Shown piece by piece: positions 22,342-52,323 of a stretch of DNA of 64,000 bases. Source of the stretch: a virus (Duplodnaviria > Caudoviricetes); IMG/VR virus record IMGVR_UViG_3300029286_000011. One strand, 5' to 3'. Both the position numbers and the translations under genes were made by a program. How positions within the stretch are numbered: the stretch's first letter is position 1; every line of letters starts with the position of its first letter. The notes under the pieces are model-generated. The model had not been told where the DNA came from. It ran no database searches and saw only the letters and a list, made by a program, of their open reading frames with translations.

Positions 22342-22689
22342 CTAGCTAGTGTATGTGCCATCAGGCGATATGTGCGCATACATAGAGTGAACAGCCATGA
22401 ACTCGATATCGAAGCTTTCGTACACGTGTCCACGCAGTTCAGGGCCCATAGGCCCTGCAAACTCTGTCCGTATGCGTACGCATGTCAGACATGTGCGATA
22501 AGAATGGAAGTAGCCATCGAACTTACCTGCCGACCGTTCGTAGGTTTCTCCCGGCGCAATCATATTACGGCAGGCGCAGCATGTGTGAGGCTTACGGGCC
22601 TTAACAAGATCTGCATTGAAGAACTGCCACGATCCGTCATAATCCATCTGCATGCCGCTAACCAGCGTCTTCATACGACAGACTCGCAA
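22342..22689 (-). CDS. Small zinc-binding phage protein
   Basis: KARKPHTCCACRNMIAPGETY..YRTCLTC. The likely start is the ATG at 22674. Confidence 0.65.
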   Translation of the reverse strand: MRVCRMKTLVSGMQMDYDGSWQFFNADLVKARKPHTCCACRNMIAPGETYERSAGKFDGYFHSYRTCLTCVRIRTEFAGPMGPELRGHVYESFDIEFMAVHSMYAHISPDGTYTS

Positions 22690-23243
22690 TTAGCGCTAAT
22701 TAAATTGGCCACGGGTTCCACCTCGTGCAGTTCGCGGCCATTGTCGTCCCTGGCGGACAATATCGGCGCAGTGGTCATGGGCCACGAAATGTTCAGCAGC
22801 TTGTCATTCCAGGCAAGCACGCGTTCGAACTCGGCAAACTGGAAGTCCGTTGACTTGTAGTGCACGATTGACGGACAAATAGCGCAGAAGCCGTGTGCAA
22901 AGCCGGGCGGTACATATAGCTGATGTCTGTTTTCGCTGCTGAGTGTATAACCGACCCAGCAGCCAAACGACGGGCTGTTCTCACGCAGATCCACCACTAC
23001 GTCAAAGATGTGGCCCTGCAGCACTTGTACGAGCTTGCCTTGTGGTCGCTGTGTCTGATAGTGCAATCCGCGAATCACGTTGGCCTTGGACACGCTGATG
23101 CTGTCCTGTACGAAATGGACATTGAGACCCATGTCGCTATAGCGCTTCTCGTTATAGGTCTCAACAAACGATCCACGATTGTCCGGATATACATCCGGCT
23201 TGATAAGCAAGACGCCATCAAATTCCTTTTGCTGTACGATCAC
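22671..23243 (-). CDS. rmlC: dTDP-4-dehydrorhamnose 3,5-epimerase
   Basis: DNRGSFVETY, FVQDSISVS..VIRGLHYQ..QGKLVQV..G.IFDVVVDLR.SPSFG.W, QLYVPPGFAHGF. Confidence 0.96.
   Translation of the reverse strand: MIVQQKEFDGVLLIKPDVYPDNRGSFVETYNEKRYSDMGLNVHFVQDSISVSKANVIRGLHYQTQRPQGKLVQVLQGHIFDVVVDLRENSPSFGCWVGYTLSSENRHQLYVPPGFAHGFCAICPSIVHYKSTDFQFAEFERVLAWNDKLLNISWPMTTAPILSARDDNGRELHEVEPVANLISANCESVV
22688..22701. promoter_or_regulatory. Palindrome AATTAGCGCTAATT (copy 2)
   Basis: Within the rmlC 3' end, about 14 nt upstream of the next likely ATG. Confidence 0.5.
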
Positions 23244-27096: not shown

Positions 27097-27630
27097 TCAG
27101 TCGGCATCGTCTTGCTCCTCCGCAACTACGACGTTGGCCCTGAGTAGATCAACCGTGTTAGCGAACGCCTTCCGCAACACTTCGTCTGGCAACTTCAACT
27201 CGTACACGTTCCCGCTGCGCGCCATGCCGGCCATCACGCAATCAACGATGTGCTCGATCACGTCGATCAGGTTCACGTCATAAGGCACACCATCTTCCAC
27301 GTTTAGATGGTGTCGGTTGATCTTGCGATGGCGTTCCCACCACACCGTTTCCTTGAATCCGGTCTGGAAGTCGCGGTGGAATCCATCGATGTCGCTGAGC
27401 TTGTCAGCGTCATGAATCAGTGCCGCACCTTGAAGCTGTCCACCGAAGAATAGTAAACCTTTATGCACGTCGTCGATGTGCATCTCGCTCGCACCTAGAA
27501 GTTGTTCCTTCGTGACCTTGCTCCAATCGCAGGTGCGCGTATCGGCTGTCGGACTCTTCTTAATTGTTATCATTGTCTTGCTCCTCGTCCTCGGGTTCAT
27601 AATCATCATCATCGGTACACTGACTGTCAT
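27097..27630 (-). CDS. HD-like phosphohydrolase (DUF5662-like)
   Basis: HIDDV..HDADKL..HRKINRHH..IDVIEHIVDCVMAG..RSG motif order. Confidence 0.5.
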   Translation of the reverse strand: MTVSVPMMMIMNPRTRSKTMITIKKSPTADTRTCDWSKVTKEQLLGASEMHIDDVHKGLLFFGGQLQGAALIHDADKLSDIDGFHRDFQTGFKETVWWERHRKINRHHLNVEDGVPYDVNLIDVIEHIVDCVMAGMARSGNVYELKLPDEVLRKAFANTVDLLRANVVVAEEQDDAD

Positions 27631-27926
27631 ACAACGCCTGCGCCGCTCGCACTCGTTGCGACTCCAGGCGGGTCCAGTTGGGTCGGCAGGTCATCGAGTA
27701 ACCTCGCAATTCGCTGGGTTGAATGGCTTGCCATCGAGGACCGCGCGCCAGTGCCGCATTTTCGTCTGCATGGTCAGGTTATCGCAGTCGATGTAGCGAA
27801 TGGCATCATGCAATGCGGCGTGTAGTTGGTCGATGTGCAACGTCAGAATGTCTACGTCGCGAGCATCACCTCTGGACAGGTCTTCGCTGCGCACCAACCG
27901 TCGCATCGCTGATGCGTGGTTCTTGT

Positions 27927-36928: not shown

Positions 36929-36956
36929 GAGATGTAATTAGCGCTAATTACATCTC
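36929..36956. promoter_or_regulatory. 28-bp perfect palindrome GAGATGTAATTAGCGCTAATTACATCTC (copy 3)
   Basis: Overlaps the stop of the upstream ORF, about 48 nt upstream of the radical SAM / methyltransferase operon. Confidence 0.65.
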
Positions 36957-40186: not shown

Positions 40187-40993
40187 CTAGCGCTGCCAGT
40201 ATGCAGCTAGCTTATCTTCGTAGCCTTCGCCCTGAGCGAATGGCGGCTGCATGGATTTAGAGCACCACACGATGTCCGTATTGGCGCGCATGTACATATC
40301 CGCATCGATGACCCATTCGCCTGTGCTCAGTCCGCACCAAGACAGGGCAGTATGTGCCATCGTGGGTGTACGTCTGCGTTCCAATTGCAGCGTGCTGATG
40401 AAGTCCATGTAACAGAAGTAGGGTATCTCCGTGCAGCAGAAACGGACGCCATGATCTTTGGCGTCAGGTCCGTACTGTGCAATCAGCTCCCTGTGCTTCG
40501 GCCCGTTGAAGTCGAAGAAGTAGTCGTAGGGAAAGCCTACGAGCTGATTAGCTGTCTCGACAGCCTTTTCTTTAGCTATCGCAGGCAGCAACGGACGCAG
40601 TACACACGAGTAATCGCTCCAAAGCAAATGTGCAGCAGATCGCCGCACAACGCCTTCGGAGATAGCTTCCACGCACATACCATCTTCAACGGCTAGCCCC
40701 GCGTGGATAAGGGAGCCGCCTATGGCCAGATTGCTCAGATAGCCTTCGTCACGGTGCAGCAGTATGTCGCCAGGCTCTACAAGCGAGTTCGTGACATGTA
40801 GAGCCTCATCCAGCGACACCTTGTTACGCCACGAATACCATCCAAGCATGAATGGGAACTTGTCCCAGCCCAGCCAACGAAGATCGCCAGGCAGGAAGAC
40901 AAGATAGCGGAAAACCCTATGCAACAACGGCAGTTTGCTCTCAGAGTAACCTGTGCAAGCCTCAGCCAGTGTCGTAAGGGTTTTCATCTGCAT
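40187..40993 (-). CDS. Permuted papain-like NlpC/P60 (YiiX/YebB-like) enzyme
   Basis: EPGDILL..HAGLAV..VEAISEGV..GFPYDYFFD..FCCTEIP (His before Cys, permuted order). Confidence 0.85.
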   Translation of the reverse strand: MQMKTLTTLAEACTGYSESKLPLLHRVFRYLVFLPGDLRWLGWDKFPFMLGWYSWRNKVSLDEALHVTNSLVEPGDILLHRDEGYLSNLAIGGSLIHAGLAVEDGMCVEAISEGVVRRSAAHLLWSDYSCVLRPLLPAIAKEKAVETANQLVGFPYDYFFDFNGPKHRELIAQYGPDAKDHGVRFCCTEIPYFCYMDFISTLQLERRRTPTMAHTALSWCGLSTGEWVIDADMYMRANTDIVWCSKSMQPPFAQGEGYEDKLAAYWQR

Positions 40994-41005
40994 GGTGCGT
41001 CCTGC

Positions 41006-41473
41006 CTATCGAATGTCTTCCAGGTCGTACACAAACCACTTGTCGATGCATACGCCACACTTAGCCGCAGAGTCAGCTATGTCCTTCTGCCATGTCGAGC
41101 AGCATGTGACAAACGTCTTACCGTACTTGCGAATCAGGGAATAGTCTGAACCGTACTTAACGCGTTCATCGGCCAGCATGCGCTTCATAGACGCTATCGG
41201 ATCTTCGTCAAGCGCAACAGCCTCAGGCAACTGTGAGTCGGCTGGTGCGTAGCAAGATATAAACACAACCAGATCGCCATCTTCAAGCTCAAAGTCCCTG
41301 GCAACGTCTTGAAACGTCTTATCGACACCACGGCGTACAGTCACATAGAAGTCAGAGAACTTGTCACTCTCTGATCGAAGCATGTCGAACTTGAATCCGA
41401 CCGTCGAGATGATATCGGACTTATAGGCATGACAGCCCTTGACACCGTACCAAGCAATTCCGATCCCGGTCAT
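41006..41473 (-). CDS. Hypothetical protein immediately downstream of the array
   Basis: 155 aa ORF starting 13 nt from the last repeat. Confidence 0.6.
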   Translation of the reverse strand: MTGIGIAWYGVKGCHAYKSDIISTVGFKFDMLRSESDKFSDFYVTVRRGVDKTFQDVARDFELEDGDLVVFISCYAPADSQLPEAVALDEDPIASMKRMLADERVKYGSDYSLIRKYGKTFVTCCSTWQKDIADSAAKCGVCIDKWFVYDLEDIR

Positions 41474-41486
41474 TAGTACCCCTCAA

Positions 41487-42733
41487 TTCTGTTGTCCGAG
41501 TGTGTGGTTACTAGCAGTGGTTGATGTTATCGAGACTGATGGTTACTAGCGCGAAGTGATGTTGTCAGTGCCAATGGTTACTCACGGTGCATGCTGTTGT
41601 CTTGTGGTTTGGTTACTCGTTCTGCCTGATGTTGTCTTGTTTTTTGATTACTTGCATCCCATGCAGTTGTCAATGGCTGTGGTTACTCACACTTATTGCT
41701 GTTGTCGCCATCAATGATTACTTCCGATGACTGCGGTTGTCTCAGGTGCTGATTACGCGTGGGGATTCAATTGAGTGGATGTTGTCAGCGCTAAGGATTA
41801 CTCGACGAGGATGCTGTTGTCTGGGGGCATGGTTACTCGTGGACGATGCTGTTGTCCGGTAGGTTGATTACTCGTTTGACCTGCTGTTATTGGGTCCAAT
41901 GATTACTCGCACGGGTTGATGTTATCTTTCTTCCTTGGTTACTCGCGGTACTTGAGGTTATCGTCGTCGGTGGTTACTCAACGTCGGTGATGTTATCGAC
42001 TTGATTGGCTGTTCTGCGTTAGTGCTGTTATCGGTTGATCTGATTACTCGGACATTGTGATGTTGTCTGGGAGCAGTGGCTACTCTCGGAGGGTGCTGTT
42101 GTCTGGGAGCATGATTACTAAACAGTCGTGCTGTCGTCGCTTGGCTTGATTACTCGCTGTCAATGATGTTGTCTGTGGGGCTGATTACTCGGACATTGTG
42201 CTGTTGTCTGGGAGCATGATTACTAAACAGTCGTGCTGTCGTCGCTTGGCTTGATTACTCTCGGAGCATGATGTTATCGATGCGTTTGGTTACACGAGTG
42301 TAATGCTGTTGTCACGGTCTTTGGTTACTCGGACAGCGTGATGTTGTCTGGAGCAGTGGTTATTTGGCCTGCGTGATGTTGTCTGGACCGATGATTACTC
42401 GCCACCAATGCTGTTGTCGTAAGGTGTGATTACTCGTGGACGGTGATGTTATCCGGTAAAGTGGTTACTTCAGGGGTCTGCTGTTGTCACGGCATTTGGT
42501 TACTCAAACTATGTGATGTTATCGTGGCGTGTGATTACTCAAGTCGCATGCTATTGTCTGAGACTTTGATTACTCCGGGTGCGTGCTGTTGTCTGGGACA
42601 TTGGTTACTCCGGGTGCGTGCTGTTGTCTGGGACCTTGATTACTCTCTGAAGATGCTGTTGTCGTATCAACTGGTTACTACAGCGTGGTGATGTTGTCTC
42701 GGGCCTTGGTTACTCCTGGCGACTGATGTTGTC
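41487..42733 (-). repeat. TIGR-like dual-repeat guide array: 35 units of 35 nt
   Basis: Plus-strand consensus TGMTGTTRTC-N8-TGRTTACTC-N8; 36 copies of the 10-mer and 35 of the 9-mer, mapped by hand. The period is not a multiple of 3 and there is no ORF through the region. The strand is inferred from gene orientation. Confidence 0.9.
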
Positions 42734-42765
42734 TTAACGCGTGAGTGCTCAAACCTAATGCAGTT

Positions 42766-42771
42766 ATCATA
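42766..42771 (-). promoter_or_regulatory. Possible -10 box (TATGAT) for the array transcript
   Basis: Lies in the short leader about 32 nt upstream of the first repeat; no convincing -35. Confidence 0.3.
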
Positions 42772-42795
42772 GTGTGTGAATGCTTAGGGAAAGTA

Positions 42796-45762
42796 TCAGG
42801 CGCTCGGGGCAACGGTTGTTGCCTGTTGCGATTTAGCTCGAATCTGTGCCAGAGCAGGCTTAAGCTGCTTAAGAATATAGTTCTGCATTGTTTCGCTCTT
42901 ATTAGCCCGCTGCAGTAACGCCAGGGTCTTCTCAGGCGTGTAGCCATACTTGGCCATGGATGTCATCAACTCCTTGTATTCCTCTGGTGTGACCTTCAGA
43001 TCATTCATGAGCCAGGGGAATTGCTGCTGAGCGGCAATGAATTCAGGCGAACCTACAGCCGCCGCAGGTGCAGCGCTGGGCACCGGACTTTCAGCGCCTG
43101 GAACTGGCACAGCTGACGGAGTAGGCGTCTCTTCACCACCCGCGCTAGCAGGCACAGCAGCTGCCTCAGGCGGTACGGCAGGAGCCTCAGGCTGCTTGCC
43201 GCCGAGGTACTGTCCGATTGGGCCGGGTATGTTGTGGCCAAACAAGCCTAATGCACCAAGGCCGAGGCCGGCTGCCATAGGCAATCCGCCACCTTCGCCT
43301 GATGCAGCTTGGTATCCGCCGTACAGCAACGGCAGTATAGCCATCGTCGTCATCCACTTCTGCTGTGGGGACAAATGGCCATATCCAAGCATCTCGAATA
43401 TCGGATCGAAAGGCGTTGTCTGTGCGGGTTGCTCAGGTGTTACCGTGCCCGTCACGTTAGCCTTGGGCAGCTTCTCCAACGGTGCGGCAGGCTCTGGCGA
43501 TGCAGGCTGCGCTGAAGGCGCATTGCTGCCAGGTACACCCATATCTGGCATAGGCACCGGAGGAACTGCACCCTTGGGCATAGGCATCTGAGGCATTGGT
43601 ACTGGCGGTACAGCGCCCTTAGGCCCAGGGTATTGAGGCATAGGCACTGGCGGCACCTTGCCAGGCGTCATGGGATTTGTCTGGGGGTTAGGCTGCGCTG
43701 GAGCTGCAGGCTCAACTCGAAGGGCGTTGTCTGCTGGAGTACCGGCCTGCTCTTCATGATGTTTGATTATCGCCTGTACCAATTCGTTATTGGGATCTGA
43801 CGCCATGTCATCAACAAGCTTGTTAGCGCCTACATCATGCGCCCTGTCGATCAATGCATCGGCTGTGGCTAGACCAGCGCCCATGCTCAATGTCTTGTTG
43901 GCCATAGGTCCGACAACAGGCGTTTGCGGATGCAGGCTCAGAGCCTTCAATCCCTTATCCACTATGCCATTTCTGCTTATGAGCTGCCTGCCCTTACCTG
44001 CGCGAAGAGAAGCACGAAGTCCACCGGCACTTCCACCAACCAATCCGCCGGCAAGAGCCATATCGCTGTCTTCACCTGTTATGGCCTTATTGCCAACGTC
44101 ATAGGCAAAGCCGGCGCCACTACCACGAATTGCACCGCCCAGCGTGTTATCGACTATCGTTCGCGGTACACGCGGCAGGGACTTCGTTATGCCCTTCACA
44201 GCGCCATGAGCTGCACCAAGACCGCCGAGCGTATTGGCAAACGTGCCATCTTCTTTGCCAGTAATCTTGTCTAAGCCGGCACCCAAGGCATAACCACCAG
44301 CGCCCTGTGCAACAGGCTTAACGACAAGGTTCTTCACAAGGCCGGGTGTTTTATCGGCTACAGACTTGGTTGCTTTGACAGTTGCCGACGGTATGGCTTT
44401 AATGGTTCCTTTAACGATATCAGTAAGGCCGCTGAGCTTGATCAATGGCATGAGATCATCGGCAGACTCAGGCGTGACTCGTATGGCCGTTTCAGCGGCC
44501 TTGATGATGTCTGCATTCATGTAGCCCTTGTCAGTCAGCGTGAACAGGAAACTGAGGGCAAAGTCGGACAGTTCAGCCAGCTTCTCTGTGCTGTCATCGT
44601 CCTTGCACACACAAGGCGACAGATTGCACGTTTCACACAGATTGCGATCAACAGGGATCGTCTTATGTTCACTGGCTTTGGCAAGCATGGCAGAGTTCTC
44701 CAAGTCTTTAGGTTTAACGAGCGACTTGTACAGTTGGCGGCCTATTTCACCGGCACCTACCAGTGAGCCACCTATTCCAAGCCGTCGAAGACCGCTAGGT
44801 AATTTACGAATGAACGGCAGCGGATTGAGTCCGGTGAACGTATTGATAGCTGATGGCACCATCTGGATTGCTGTGGGCGCTGCAGCTACAGTCTTAGACA
44901 AACCCTTGCGTGCCACAGGGCTAGTCATGACGTCTGCAAATAGACTCATAAGCTGGCGGCGACTGATCGGCTCGTTGTGGCTGACACTGGCCAGCGTGCT
45001 GATCATAGTTGGTGATATACCCTTAAAGGCCTTGCGACCTATCAAATTCTGTACAGCGCCTATAGCTGCCCTTGGTATGGCTGCTGACTTCTCGGCAGCC
45101 CTCACAGGCAATTGATTAGACGCAAGCAATGTACGCAACACAGCTCTACGCGCCTTTGTAGCCGCAGGATTCATGCCACGATTTATTCGGGTGTTCTGTA
45201 GGGCTGTGATCAGAGAACGAAAGCGTATATTCTGCAAGGCTGATCGTGTGTCTGTACCTCGCTCTTCATCCGATACAGGATCACCGACCTCACCAGTGCC
45301 GAAGTATGTGCGACTGCCACGATACTTAGCTCGACGTGCATCGTTAGCCTGATTAGTCCATTCGAATGTAACCGGATCAATAGGCAGCAAACGAGGATTG
45401 TGCAGCTTGTAGCCTGCCTCTTCTATGAACTCACGAGCACCCGCCTGCTCCAACGTCTCACCGTCTTCAACGCCGCCACCAAATGCACCATGGTTCTTGT
45501 CCTGATCGTAATAACCGCCAAGAACTTTGCCCGCCTGATTAAGGCCGAACATCTCTATTCGATCACGGTACGGACGCGAGTCATCAGCCTTTTTCTTAGC
45601 TTTCGGAGACTTGATCTTCTTGATCACGTTGGTGTCCTTCTTCGACTTGTCGATAGGCTTGCTAGGCTTGTCGATACGCAGCTTGCCAGGCACGCTGTCC
45701 TGCAGCTTACCAATAGGCTGCATGCCCTGCGTCATCAGCGCTATGAGCTGGCTTAGTGTCAT
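42796..45762 (-). CDS. Large multidomain protein: Nudix hydrolase, Gly-rich hydrophobic helices and Pro-rich linker
   Basis: Canonical Nudix box GGVEDGETLEQAGAREFIEEAGY; glycine-zipper-like AGGYALGAGL / LAGGLVGGSAGG; PVPMP repeats. Confidence 0.8.
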   Translation of the reverse strand: MTLSQLIALMTQGMQPIGKLQDSVPGKLRIDKPSKPIDKSKKDTNVIKKIKSPKAKKKADDSRPYRDRIEMFGLNQAGKVLGGYYDQDKNHGAFGGGVEDGETLEQAGAREFIEEAGYKLHNPRLLPIDPVTFEWTNQANDARRAKYRGSRTYFGTGEVGDPVSDEERGTDTRSALQNIRFRSLITALQNTRINRGMNPAATKARRAVLRTLLASNQLPVRAAEKSAAIPRAAIGAVQNLIGRKAFKGISPTMISTLASVSHNEPISRRQLMSLFADVMTSPVARKGLSKTVAAAPTAIQMVPSAINTFTGLNPLPFIRKLPSGLRRLGIGGSLVGAGEIGRQLYKSLVKPKDLENSAMLAKASEHKTIPVDRNLCETCNLSPCVCKDDDSTEKLAELSDFALSFLFTLTDKGYMNADIIKAAETAIRVTPESADDLMPLIKLSGLTDIVKGTIKAIPSATVKATKSVADKTPGLVKNLVVKPVAQGAGGYALGAGLDKITGKEDGTFANTLGGLGAAHGAVKGITKSLPRVPRTIVDNTLGGAIRGSGAGFAYDVGNKAITGEDSDMALAGGLVGGSAGGLRASLRAGKGRQLISRNGIVDKGLKALSLHPQTPVVGPMANKTLSMGAGLATADALIDRAHDVGANKLVDDMASDPNNELVQAIIKHHEEQAGTPADNALRVEPAAPAQPNPQTNPMTPGKVPPVPMPQYPGPKGAVPPVPMPQMPMPKGAVPPVPMPDMGVPGSNAPSAQPASPEPAAPLEKLPKANVTGTVTPEQPAQTTPFDPIFEMLGYGHLSPQQKWMTTMAILPLLYGGYQAASGEGGGLPMAAGLGLGALGLFGHNIPGPIGQYLGGKQPEAPAVPPEAAAVPASAGGEETPTPSAVPVPGAESPVPSAAPAAAVGSPEFIAAQQQFPWLMNDLKVTPEEYKELMTSMAKYGYTPEKTLALLQRANKSETMQNYILKQLKPALAQIRAKSQQATTVAPSA

Positions 45763-52301: not shown

Positions 52302-52323
52302 GAGATGTAATTAGCGCTAATTA
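52302..52323. promoter_or_regulatory. GAGATGTAATTAGCGCTAATTA (palindrome copy 4)
   Basis: Between a terminator and the next ATG at 52290. Confidence 0.6.

Follow-up and report, generated by a model that had tools for sequence, protein, structure and literature searches.

Organization of the repeat array

The DNA analyzed here is a stretch of 64,000 nucleotides (nt) from a virus (Duplodnaviria; Caudoviricetes; IMG/VR record IMGVR_UViG_3300029286_000011), referred to in its full length as the window. It contains a long array in which two short repeats alternate, with the anatomy of a dual-repeat TIGR array, and a distant open reading frame (ORF) at positions 1399-2730 that encodes a Nop-domain protein of the Tas family and is called tas below. 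The coordinates of these and other features are collected in Table 1.

The minus strand carries the 10-nt repeat GAYAACAKCA in 37 copies, whose first bases lie at positions 42768 down to 41496. They bound 36 head-to-tail units, of which 33 are 35 nt long, two are 36 nt, and one is 45 nt. Each unit contains one copy of a second repeat of 9 nt; 35 of these copies lie within two mismatches of GAGTAAYCA, and the remaining one is degenerate (GAACAGCCA). The repeats are separated by 72 spacers, 69 of them 8 nt in length, two 9 nt, and one, lengthened by a 10-nt insertion, 18 nt. Of the 34 regular two-spacer guides in the array, 33 are unique. The 10-nt repeat is the edge repeat, because the main array and a remnant unit close to tas both end with it, and because the upstream arrays of related loci end in a truncated copy of a conserved 10-nt repeat. 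TIGR arrays have been reported to end in a truncated edge-type repeat (Faure et al., PMC12045711). The core of the 9-nt repeat is an A-rich GUAA, which resembles the loop repeats of relatives.

The information content of the repeats is at least 1.59 of 2 bits at 14 of the 19 positions. At the three two-base positions (Y, K, and Y) it is 1.0-1.2 bits, and it falls to 0.84 bits at the opening base of the 9-nt repeat; spacer positions reach a maximum of 0.6 bits. A composite pattern consisting of the 10-nt repeat, N8, and the 9-nt repeat gave 28 matches with at most one mismatch, against 0.00 in 100 shuffles, and all 28 are on the minus strand inside 41505-42733. Tandem Repeats Finder reported periods of 35, 70, and 105 nt for the array. 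A custom periodicity scan of the window revealed no further array, and no Rfam match was obtained on either strand of 40500-43500. The dual-repeat TIGR anatomy of the array is confirmed, far beyond chance.

A first-pass annotation of this DNA, made from the sequence alone, had counted 36 and 35 copies of the two repeats and about 70 spacers, which was essentially right given the 37 edge repeats, 36 loop repeats, and 72 spacers described above. The array does occupy the interval 41487-42733 given there; its 5' end, however, lies about 35 nt further out, at 42768. The same annotation had remarked that both repeats begin with GA and finish with CA, corresponding to a box D start and a box C end, and this is seen in both consensus sequences.

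Two other classes of repeat were considered. In the ORF survey only short chance ORFs, and no long ORF, cross the array, and a period of 35 nt excludes a coding repeat, as had been argued at the outset. A CRISPR array was rejected on the grounds of the two repeats of only 9-10 nt, the 8-nt spacers, and the lack of an Rfam match at 40500-43500; here too the earlier view that the repeats are unlike those of CRISPR was borne out.

The Tas protein

ORF 1399-2730 itself gave no Pfam hit, and it matches PHROG 4285, labelled "transposase" (E 3e-13). Its database relatives number 39, at 25-37% identity, and most of them carry PF02371; the IS110 RuvC domain PF01548 was not hit in any member of the Tas alignment. 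A profile was built from 32 sequences among these relatives and compared with the Protein Data Bank (PDB). It matched TasR chain 9mty with an E value of 1.2e-25 and TasH (21kl, 9w03, and others) with 2e-14, whereas the IS110-family transposases IS621 and ISCro4 reached only about 1e-7.

A single-sequence AlphaFold model of Tas was unusable (predicted local distance difference test (pLDDT) score 38), and an alignment-based model was taken instead. This model is all-helical, with a pLDDT of 87 and a predicted template modeling score (pTM) of 0.80. In a Foldseek search with it, the ten best PDB matches were all TasR or TasH, each with a probability of 1.00. Its N terminus (residues 1-57) is disordered, a coiled coil spans about residues 59-144, and the Nop domain follows. 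What sets the protein apart from its relatives are two insertions in the Nop domain, at 194-248 and 334-365, and an N-terminal extension (2-57) that is disordered. The model contains neither a RuvC nor an HNH domain, and Tas is therefore TasA-like. ORF 1399-2730 is a true Tas-family Nop protein, and the profile and fold matches uphold the first-pass annotation on this point. Identity as an IS110-family transposase was rejected in view of the all-helical model without RuvC and the absence of PF01548 from the alignment; the PHROG label is a misnomer for this ORF.

In the TasH protein SpTasH, the edge repeat is cut with Tyr-289 and His-296 on the C-terminal Nop loop (PMC13421893). The Tas family studied here shares this Tyr-x6-His spacing, the equivalence being one of spacing and position, not of direct alignment. 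His-414 in the loop is invariant across the family. Seven residues upstream, this Tas has His-407, at a position where the 32 family members have Tyr in 25 cases, Phe in five, and Trp in one.

When all six-frame ORFs of the window were searched with the Tas profile using hmmsearch, only ORF 1399-2730 matched. The Tas protein had no match in a GenBank phage collection. The accessions for this DNA did not turn up in the supplement text of Faure et al. (PMC12045711) that was searched; this tas may nonetheless be in their tables.

Comparison with related loci

The comparison set comprised 80 viral loci that encode the nearest relatives of Tas. Within the flanks examined, arrays with a period of 34-38 nt are present in 73 of the 80 loci. 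The distance between array and tas is at most 300 nt in 62 loci and at most 1.5 kb in 69; in four it is 2.2-9.5 kb. Most often in the clade the format is 10/8/10/8, or 36 nt; GAGCGAGCCA and GAGAGnACCA are examples of the repeats. The spacers are as a rule 8 nt long, repeats reading GA...CA are likewise normal, a 35-nt period occurs in five of the 73 related arrays, and related arrays reach 31-37 units. Within a pair of repeats from one array, the end dinucleotides match in 41 of 46 cases and the starts in 40 of 45; box C/D covariation between the repeats of one array has been described by Faure et al. (PMC12045711).

The unit length, spacer length, and size of the array in the window all fall within the normal range of the clade. 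The 35-nt unit and 8-nt spacers had at first been called non-canonical, a description that does not survive this comparison, and SpTIGR already has 16 variable nt per guide (PMC12045711). The array had also been called large, but relatives match its 36 units, and its size as a distinguishing feature was overstated.

The closest relative of Tas, at 36% identity, is encoded at locus L008 (IMGVR_UViG_3300037247_000962), where an array follows directly after tas. That array consists of GAGCGAGCCA, 8 nt, GATTGAGCA, and 8 nt, so that it has a 10/8/9/8 format with a period of 35 nt, and it reads GA...CA on the tas strand. In the window, too, array and tas share a strand, along which the array reads GA...CA. 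Because its format is shared with the nearest relative, it is the format expected for this Tas lineage. The classification as a TIGR-type array that the first-pass annotation had offered is well founded, given the dual-repeat anatomy, the Tas homologue, and the identical format beside the closest relative. The system resembles the dual-repeat TIGR-TasA of phages (PMC12045711; for example FpTIGR-TasA), and L008 most closely, in its alternating repeats, 8-nt spacers, unit layout, and GA...CA ends. In both the window and L008 the Tas is a solo Nop-domain protein without a nuclease. The two differ in the sequences of their repeats, in the N-terminal extension and two insertions of the present Tas, and in the His that replaces the loop Tyr. 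They also differ in position: in L008 and most relatives the array lies 0-300 nt from tas, whereas here it is found far upstream, amid unrelated genes. Relatives of the array-flanking genes were sought in a viral contig collection for syntenic arrays, and none were found.

Distance between the array and tas

The distance to tas is the one outlier of the array. From the last edge repeat (41487) to the tas ATG (2730) it amounts to 38.8 kb in the window, far outside the distribution of the relatives. In ENA record ERZ27250635 k141_2774619 the gap is 41.2 kb. Comparison of the window with the 209,573-bp ENA record gives 38,743 versus 41,211 bases between the start codons, and this difference of about 2.47 kb, located somewhere between tas and array, represents an indel by which phage populations differ. 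All structural features of a dual-repeat TIGR-TasA other than adjacency of tas to the array are found here. Adjacency is how the TIGR-Tas family was found, and it is not a mechanistic requirement. The first-pass annotation had described the array as not adjacent to its tas gene; the gap is real, but a single degenerate unit does lie at the start of tas.

Five large phage records in which a first detector saw no array near tas were scanned with a generic 10/8/10/8 GA...CA pattern. Distal arrays were found in three of these five large phages of the Tas clade, with hits on the tas strand only; the reversed control pattern gave 0 hits. A complete genome of 141 kb has a 2.2-kb array about 10 kb from tas. 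A second complete genome, of 88 kb, carries arrays roughly 10 to 75 kb from tas together with a short adjacent array, and a genome of 161 kb has an array 33 kb from tas as well as adjacent ones. Homologues of the genes that flank the array in the window were not found beside the distal arrays of the other phages.

A remnant unit at the tas start codon

An exact copy of the edge repeat, GACAACATCA, is situated at 2739-2730, its final A serving as the first base of the tas ATG. On the upstream side, at a distance of exactly 35 nt, is the edge-like sequence TGTAGCATCA (2774-2765), which agrees with the edge repeat at seven of 10 positions. The loop-like sequence of this unit, GCCAAAACCA, ends in CCA, and the 7-nt spacer contains the ribosome-binding site AAGGA. 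Outside the array, the edge-repeat pattern occurs in two copies in the window, the copy at tas being the only one on the sense strand, and about 1.2 copies would be expected for both repeat patterns together. In a window-wide nhmmer scan with the unit profile, the tas copy was not significant (E 1.4). The weight of this solitary repeat comes from its position on the start codon and its 35-nt phasing. By our own calculation, a sense-strand copy would fall this close to tas, no more than a few hundred bases from either end, with a probability of about 0.005.

In relatives with upstream arrays, the last repeat runs into the ribosome-binding site or the ATG of tas. The simplest history suggested by the sequence is that the unit is a remnant of an ancestral array-tas junction, which would have been split by rearrangement or insertion. 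An autoregulatory role of the repeat at the tas start is also possible.

Spacer similarity and variation

The spacers that follow the edge repeat (A) and those that follow the loop repeat (B) were compared within and between classes. Near-identical pairs (Hamming distance of at most 2) number 10 among A spacers and 13 among B spacers, against about 3.5-3.9 expected from shuffled controls. Between the classes, 10 such A-B pairs were observed against about 6.9 expected, which is not a significant enrichment. The similarity within each class, together with the 105-nt duplication (Table 1), indicates that the array grew by duplication and divergence of units. Successive edge repeats showed no covariation of position 8 with position 3 of the next copy (Fisher p 0.47).

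The composition of the spacers is skewed: on the RNA-sense strand they are 37% C, with G, A, and T at about 21% each. Spacer B is biased toward CCCA-like sequences at its 3' end, and C-rich spacers of this kind are unlike those in the arrays of 50-odd relatives.

The array is present in three other assemblies with only 3 base differences. One contig from a lake metagenome of another study lacks the 105-nt duplication (it skips 42092-42198), which may be polymorphic or collapsed, and in a low-depth contig five of six substitutions fall inside two spacers; both are weak observations.

Genomic setting

All long ORFs of the window are on the minus strand. The stop codon of the gene for a 988-residue protein lies 28 nt before the first edge repeat. 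Beyond its NUDIX domain, the remaining approximately 770 residues of this protein had no match in Pfam, PHROG, a PDB sequence search, or the ESM Atlas. It was rejected as a second tas, the six-frame hmmsearch having matched only ORF 1399-2730 and the protein consisting of a NUDIX domain and unmatched sequence. At the other end of the array, the last edge repeat is degenerate on its 3' side, and the spacer position after it contains the ribosome-binding site GAGGGG of a 155-residue ORF.

The same DNA occurs in lake-water metagenomes, on contigs of up to 209,573 bp. Genes nearby in the 209,573-bp record encode DNA polymerase A, SbcCD, and a helicase, and most of the phage proteins have no PHROG match. 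The source looks like a large and very novel phage. A 327-residue gene after sbcC (L090:4569-5552, about 22 kb beyond the window) was considered as a second Nop-like gene and is not supported; in single-sequence tests its hhalign probability against the Tas profile was 0.1%, and neither Pfam nor the PDB yielded a hit. The 156-residue gene behind it (L090:5580-6050) had no Pfam hit.

Directly downstream of tas is a gene for adenylosuccinate synthetase (window 3-1379, minus strand; Pfam E 2e-53), and upstream of tas there are other metabolic genes, encoding a ThiF-like E1 protein, an epimerase, and a nucleotidyltransferase.

A 14-nt palindrome, AATTAGCGCTAATT, occurs without mismatch at four intergenic sites of the window (0.02 would be expected), each at a gene boundary (8121-8134, 22688-22701, 36936-36949, and 52309-52322), and more copies are found in L001, L088, L089, and L090. 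A regulatory role is probable, as a phage promoter, an operator, or another site of this kind. A guide matching the palindrome was considered and rejected: the composite site has 2-3 mismatches, and the unit lies in the degenerate 45-nt region. The spacers of this match flank an edge repeat and therefore belong to different guides, and about 25 hits of this kind are expected by chance by our own calculation. Tandem repeats with periods of 39 and 42 nt are present inside called genes of the same phage (L088:2385-2731; L089:7524-7956, which equals L090:16690-17122). These are likely to be coding repeats that have no relation to the TIGR array.

Table 1. Coordinates of the array, tas, and associated features. 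Positions refer to the window unless another record is named.
Feature	Position	Strand	Description or evidence
Dual-repeat TIGR array, 36 units	41487..42768	minus	edge GAYAACAKCA (10), spacer A (8), loop GAGTAAYCA (9), spacer B (8)
Internal tandem duplication, 105-nt block (3 units)	42094..42313 (approx.)	minus	Tandem Repeats Finder
Irregular part of array	41741..41803	minus	degenerate repeats GAGTAATCC, GACAACATCC and 45-nt unit with 10-nt insertion
tas, 443-residue nuclease-free TasA-like Nop-domain protein	1399..2730	minus	profile and AlphaFold/Foldseek
Vestigial single TIGR unit	2730..2774	minus	edge-like TGTAGCATCA, 8-nt spacer, loop-like GCCAAAACCA, 7-nt spacer, edge GACAACATCA
988-residue protein, N-terminal NUDIX domain (about residues 56-216)	42796..45762	minus	not Nop-like
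155-residue ORF without assigned function	41006..41473	minus	downstream neighbor of array
Distal arrays in large phages	G001:C1:74360-76576; G003:C1:12710-15195, 27443-27650, 86927-87944; G004:C1:90232-91841	tas strand	records behind L013, L026, L035

Discussion

The anatomy of the array, the homology and fold of Tas, the format shared with the nearest relative, the common orientation of the array and tas, and the distance between them are direct observations. Taken together, it is likely that this is a functional dual-repeat TIGR array that is served in trans by the TasA-like protein of ORF 1399-2730, the only detectable Tas.

A model of how such a system would operate can be drawn by homology with characterized systems (PMC12045711; PMC13421893; bioRxiv 10.64898/2026.09.09.750476), and from these we infer transcription, processing, DNA binding, and targets. 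The minus-strand array would be read within a long co-directional transcription unit; co-transcription with its neighbors is the simplest reading of its setting. The repeat ends, box D (GA) and box C (CA), would be bound by a Tas dimer. Cleavage of the precursor would take place within the 10-nt edge repeat, with the C-terminal Nop loop and its His-407 and His-414 as the probable agent. The resulting guide RNAs (tigRNAs) of 35 nt would each comprise half an edge repeat, spacer A (8 nt), the loop GAGUAAYCA, spacer B (8 nt), and the other half edge. Together with its tigRNA, the TasA-like dimer would bind DNA sites of 16 bp, with one spacer pairing to each strand. Since a nuclease domain is missing from the protein, DNA would be expected to be bound and bent rather than cleaved, which may block transcription or replication through steric repression or interference. 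TasA has been demonstrated to be an RNA-guided repressor (bioRxiv 10.64898/2026.09.09.750476). The solitary edge repeat at the tas start could be a relic of the ancestral junction, or a site at which Tas binds or cuts its own mRNA.

Several observations weigh against a functional array served by this Tas. The 34 guides were searched in both tandem geometries, with gaps of 0-2, against about 113 kb of the phage's own DNA (the window, L001, L089, and L090). No site with at most one mismatch in the correct register was found, and the single one-mismatch hits were all in the other register, at chance level. The first-pass annotation had proposed a check of paired spacers against this phage, and it brought no target to light. 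For sites of 16 nt, hundreds of random hits per pattern would be expected in the large public collections by our own calculation. The array is nearly invariant in comparable assemblies. With His in place of the family's catalytic Tyr, autonomous processing by this Tas is putative. No sigma-70 promoter or intrinsic terminator was found flanking the array on the minus strand, and the record look-ups listed no RNA runs for this DNA. Finally, approximately 95 kb of the 209-kb genome lie outside the sequence read and could hold another tas or array.

Some of these points, and others, would fit an array that is an orphaned and decaying relic, split from tas by rearrangement and without working guides. 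The distance of 38.8 kb, compared with at most 1.5 kb in 69 of 80 relatives, could be read in this way, as could the degenerate repeats and 45-nt unit around 41741-41803, the internal duplications and related spacers, the failure to find targets in the phage DNA searched, and the replacement of the catalytic Tyr. However, 28 of the 36 units keep both repeats (at most one mismatch) with exact 8-nt spacing, the tas ORF is intact and its model confident, and the array has been kept with only 3 base differences in three independent assemblies. Other large phages also keep long and regular arrays 10-60 kb from tas on the same strand, so that distance alone is no sign of decay. Loss of function is, on this evidence, improbable.

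The array might instead work with another effector, either a second tas elsewhere in the genome, for which the approximately 95 kb outside the sequence read would leave room, or the 988-residue NUDIX-domain protein, whose gene ends so close to the array and most of which has no recognizable fold. We consider this highly improbable. The Tas profile does not pick up the 988-residue protein, no homologue of this protein lies beside the distal arrays of other phages, the format of the array is that of the nearest relative of Tas 1399-2730, and an exact array repeat lies on the start codon of that very gene. It is scarcely credible that the repeats are protein-binding sites on DNA, such as iterons or a centromere or operator array, and not an RNA array at all. 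Phased short repeats can act as binding arrays, and a transcript is here only predicted, but two distinct repeats that alternate with strictly 8-nt variable fillers on a fixed strand are features that iterons do not explain and TIGR does. The format is moreover identical to that of arrays adjoining homologous tas genes, and a Tas protein is present.

Read as a TIGR-TasA system acting in trans, the locus can be compared with characterized relatives outside its own group. SpTIGR-TasH from Salicola phage CGphi29 (PDB codes 9W03, 9W04, and 21KL; PMC13421893) is likewise phage-borne and dual-repeat, with the same number of variable nt per guide and a related Nop domain. Its Tyr-289/His-296 dyad has the spacing seen in the present family. 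In contrast to the nuclease-free Tas described here, with His-407 at the Tyr position, SpTasH has an N-terminal HNH nuclease and cleaves DNA. For the coiled coil and Nop domain, TaTIGR-TasR (PDB code 9MTY) is the best match in both sequence and structure, but TasR carries a RuvC nuclease, and its 36-nt units with 9-nt spacers and UG...CCA boxes are unlike those in the window. The bridge-RNA IS110-family transposases IS621 and ISCro4 have a distantly related RNA-binding domain, the one seen as PF02371 in relatives of Tas; a DEDD RuvC domain, a catalytic Ser domain, a bridge RNA, and element ends are all absent here.

A further idea is that the separation of array and tas is functional and not accidental, with guide production, expression of an operon, and autoregulation of Tas linked in one TIGR circuit that acts in trans. 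We regard it as doubtful. If it were true, Tas cutting at edge repeats would also sever the polycistronic mRNA of the unrelated phage operon that hosts the array, and Tas could bind or cleave its own transcript through the solitary edge repeat at its start codon. Part of the approximately two thirds of tas loci that lack an array in tas-proximal searches would, more broadly, be accounted for by distal arrays of large phages.

TIGR-Tas systems have been known since 2025 and thousands of their arrays are on record; the present locus is otherwise an ordinary example of TIGR-TasA. Its minor peculiarities are the His in place of the loop Tyr and the solitary repeat on the tas start codon, the latter being a concrete lead for autoregulation. 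The definition of TIGR-Tas systems came from looking beside tas genes, and cataloguing still proceeds in this way; TIGRFinder annotates arrays "surrounding tas loci" and has arrays at 6,685 of 20,096 loci. The main value of the locus is the indication that such tas-proximal searches miss distal arrays in large phages. A full-size and well-kept array can sit about 40 kb from the only Tas gene detected in a phage. Given the distal arrays here and in three of five other large phages, genome-wide array searches would recover guides that are now missed, and the additional spacers would aid the unsolved question of the natural targets of TIGR systems.

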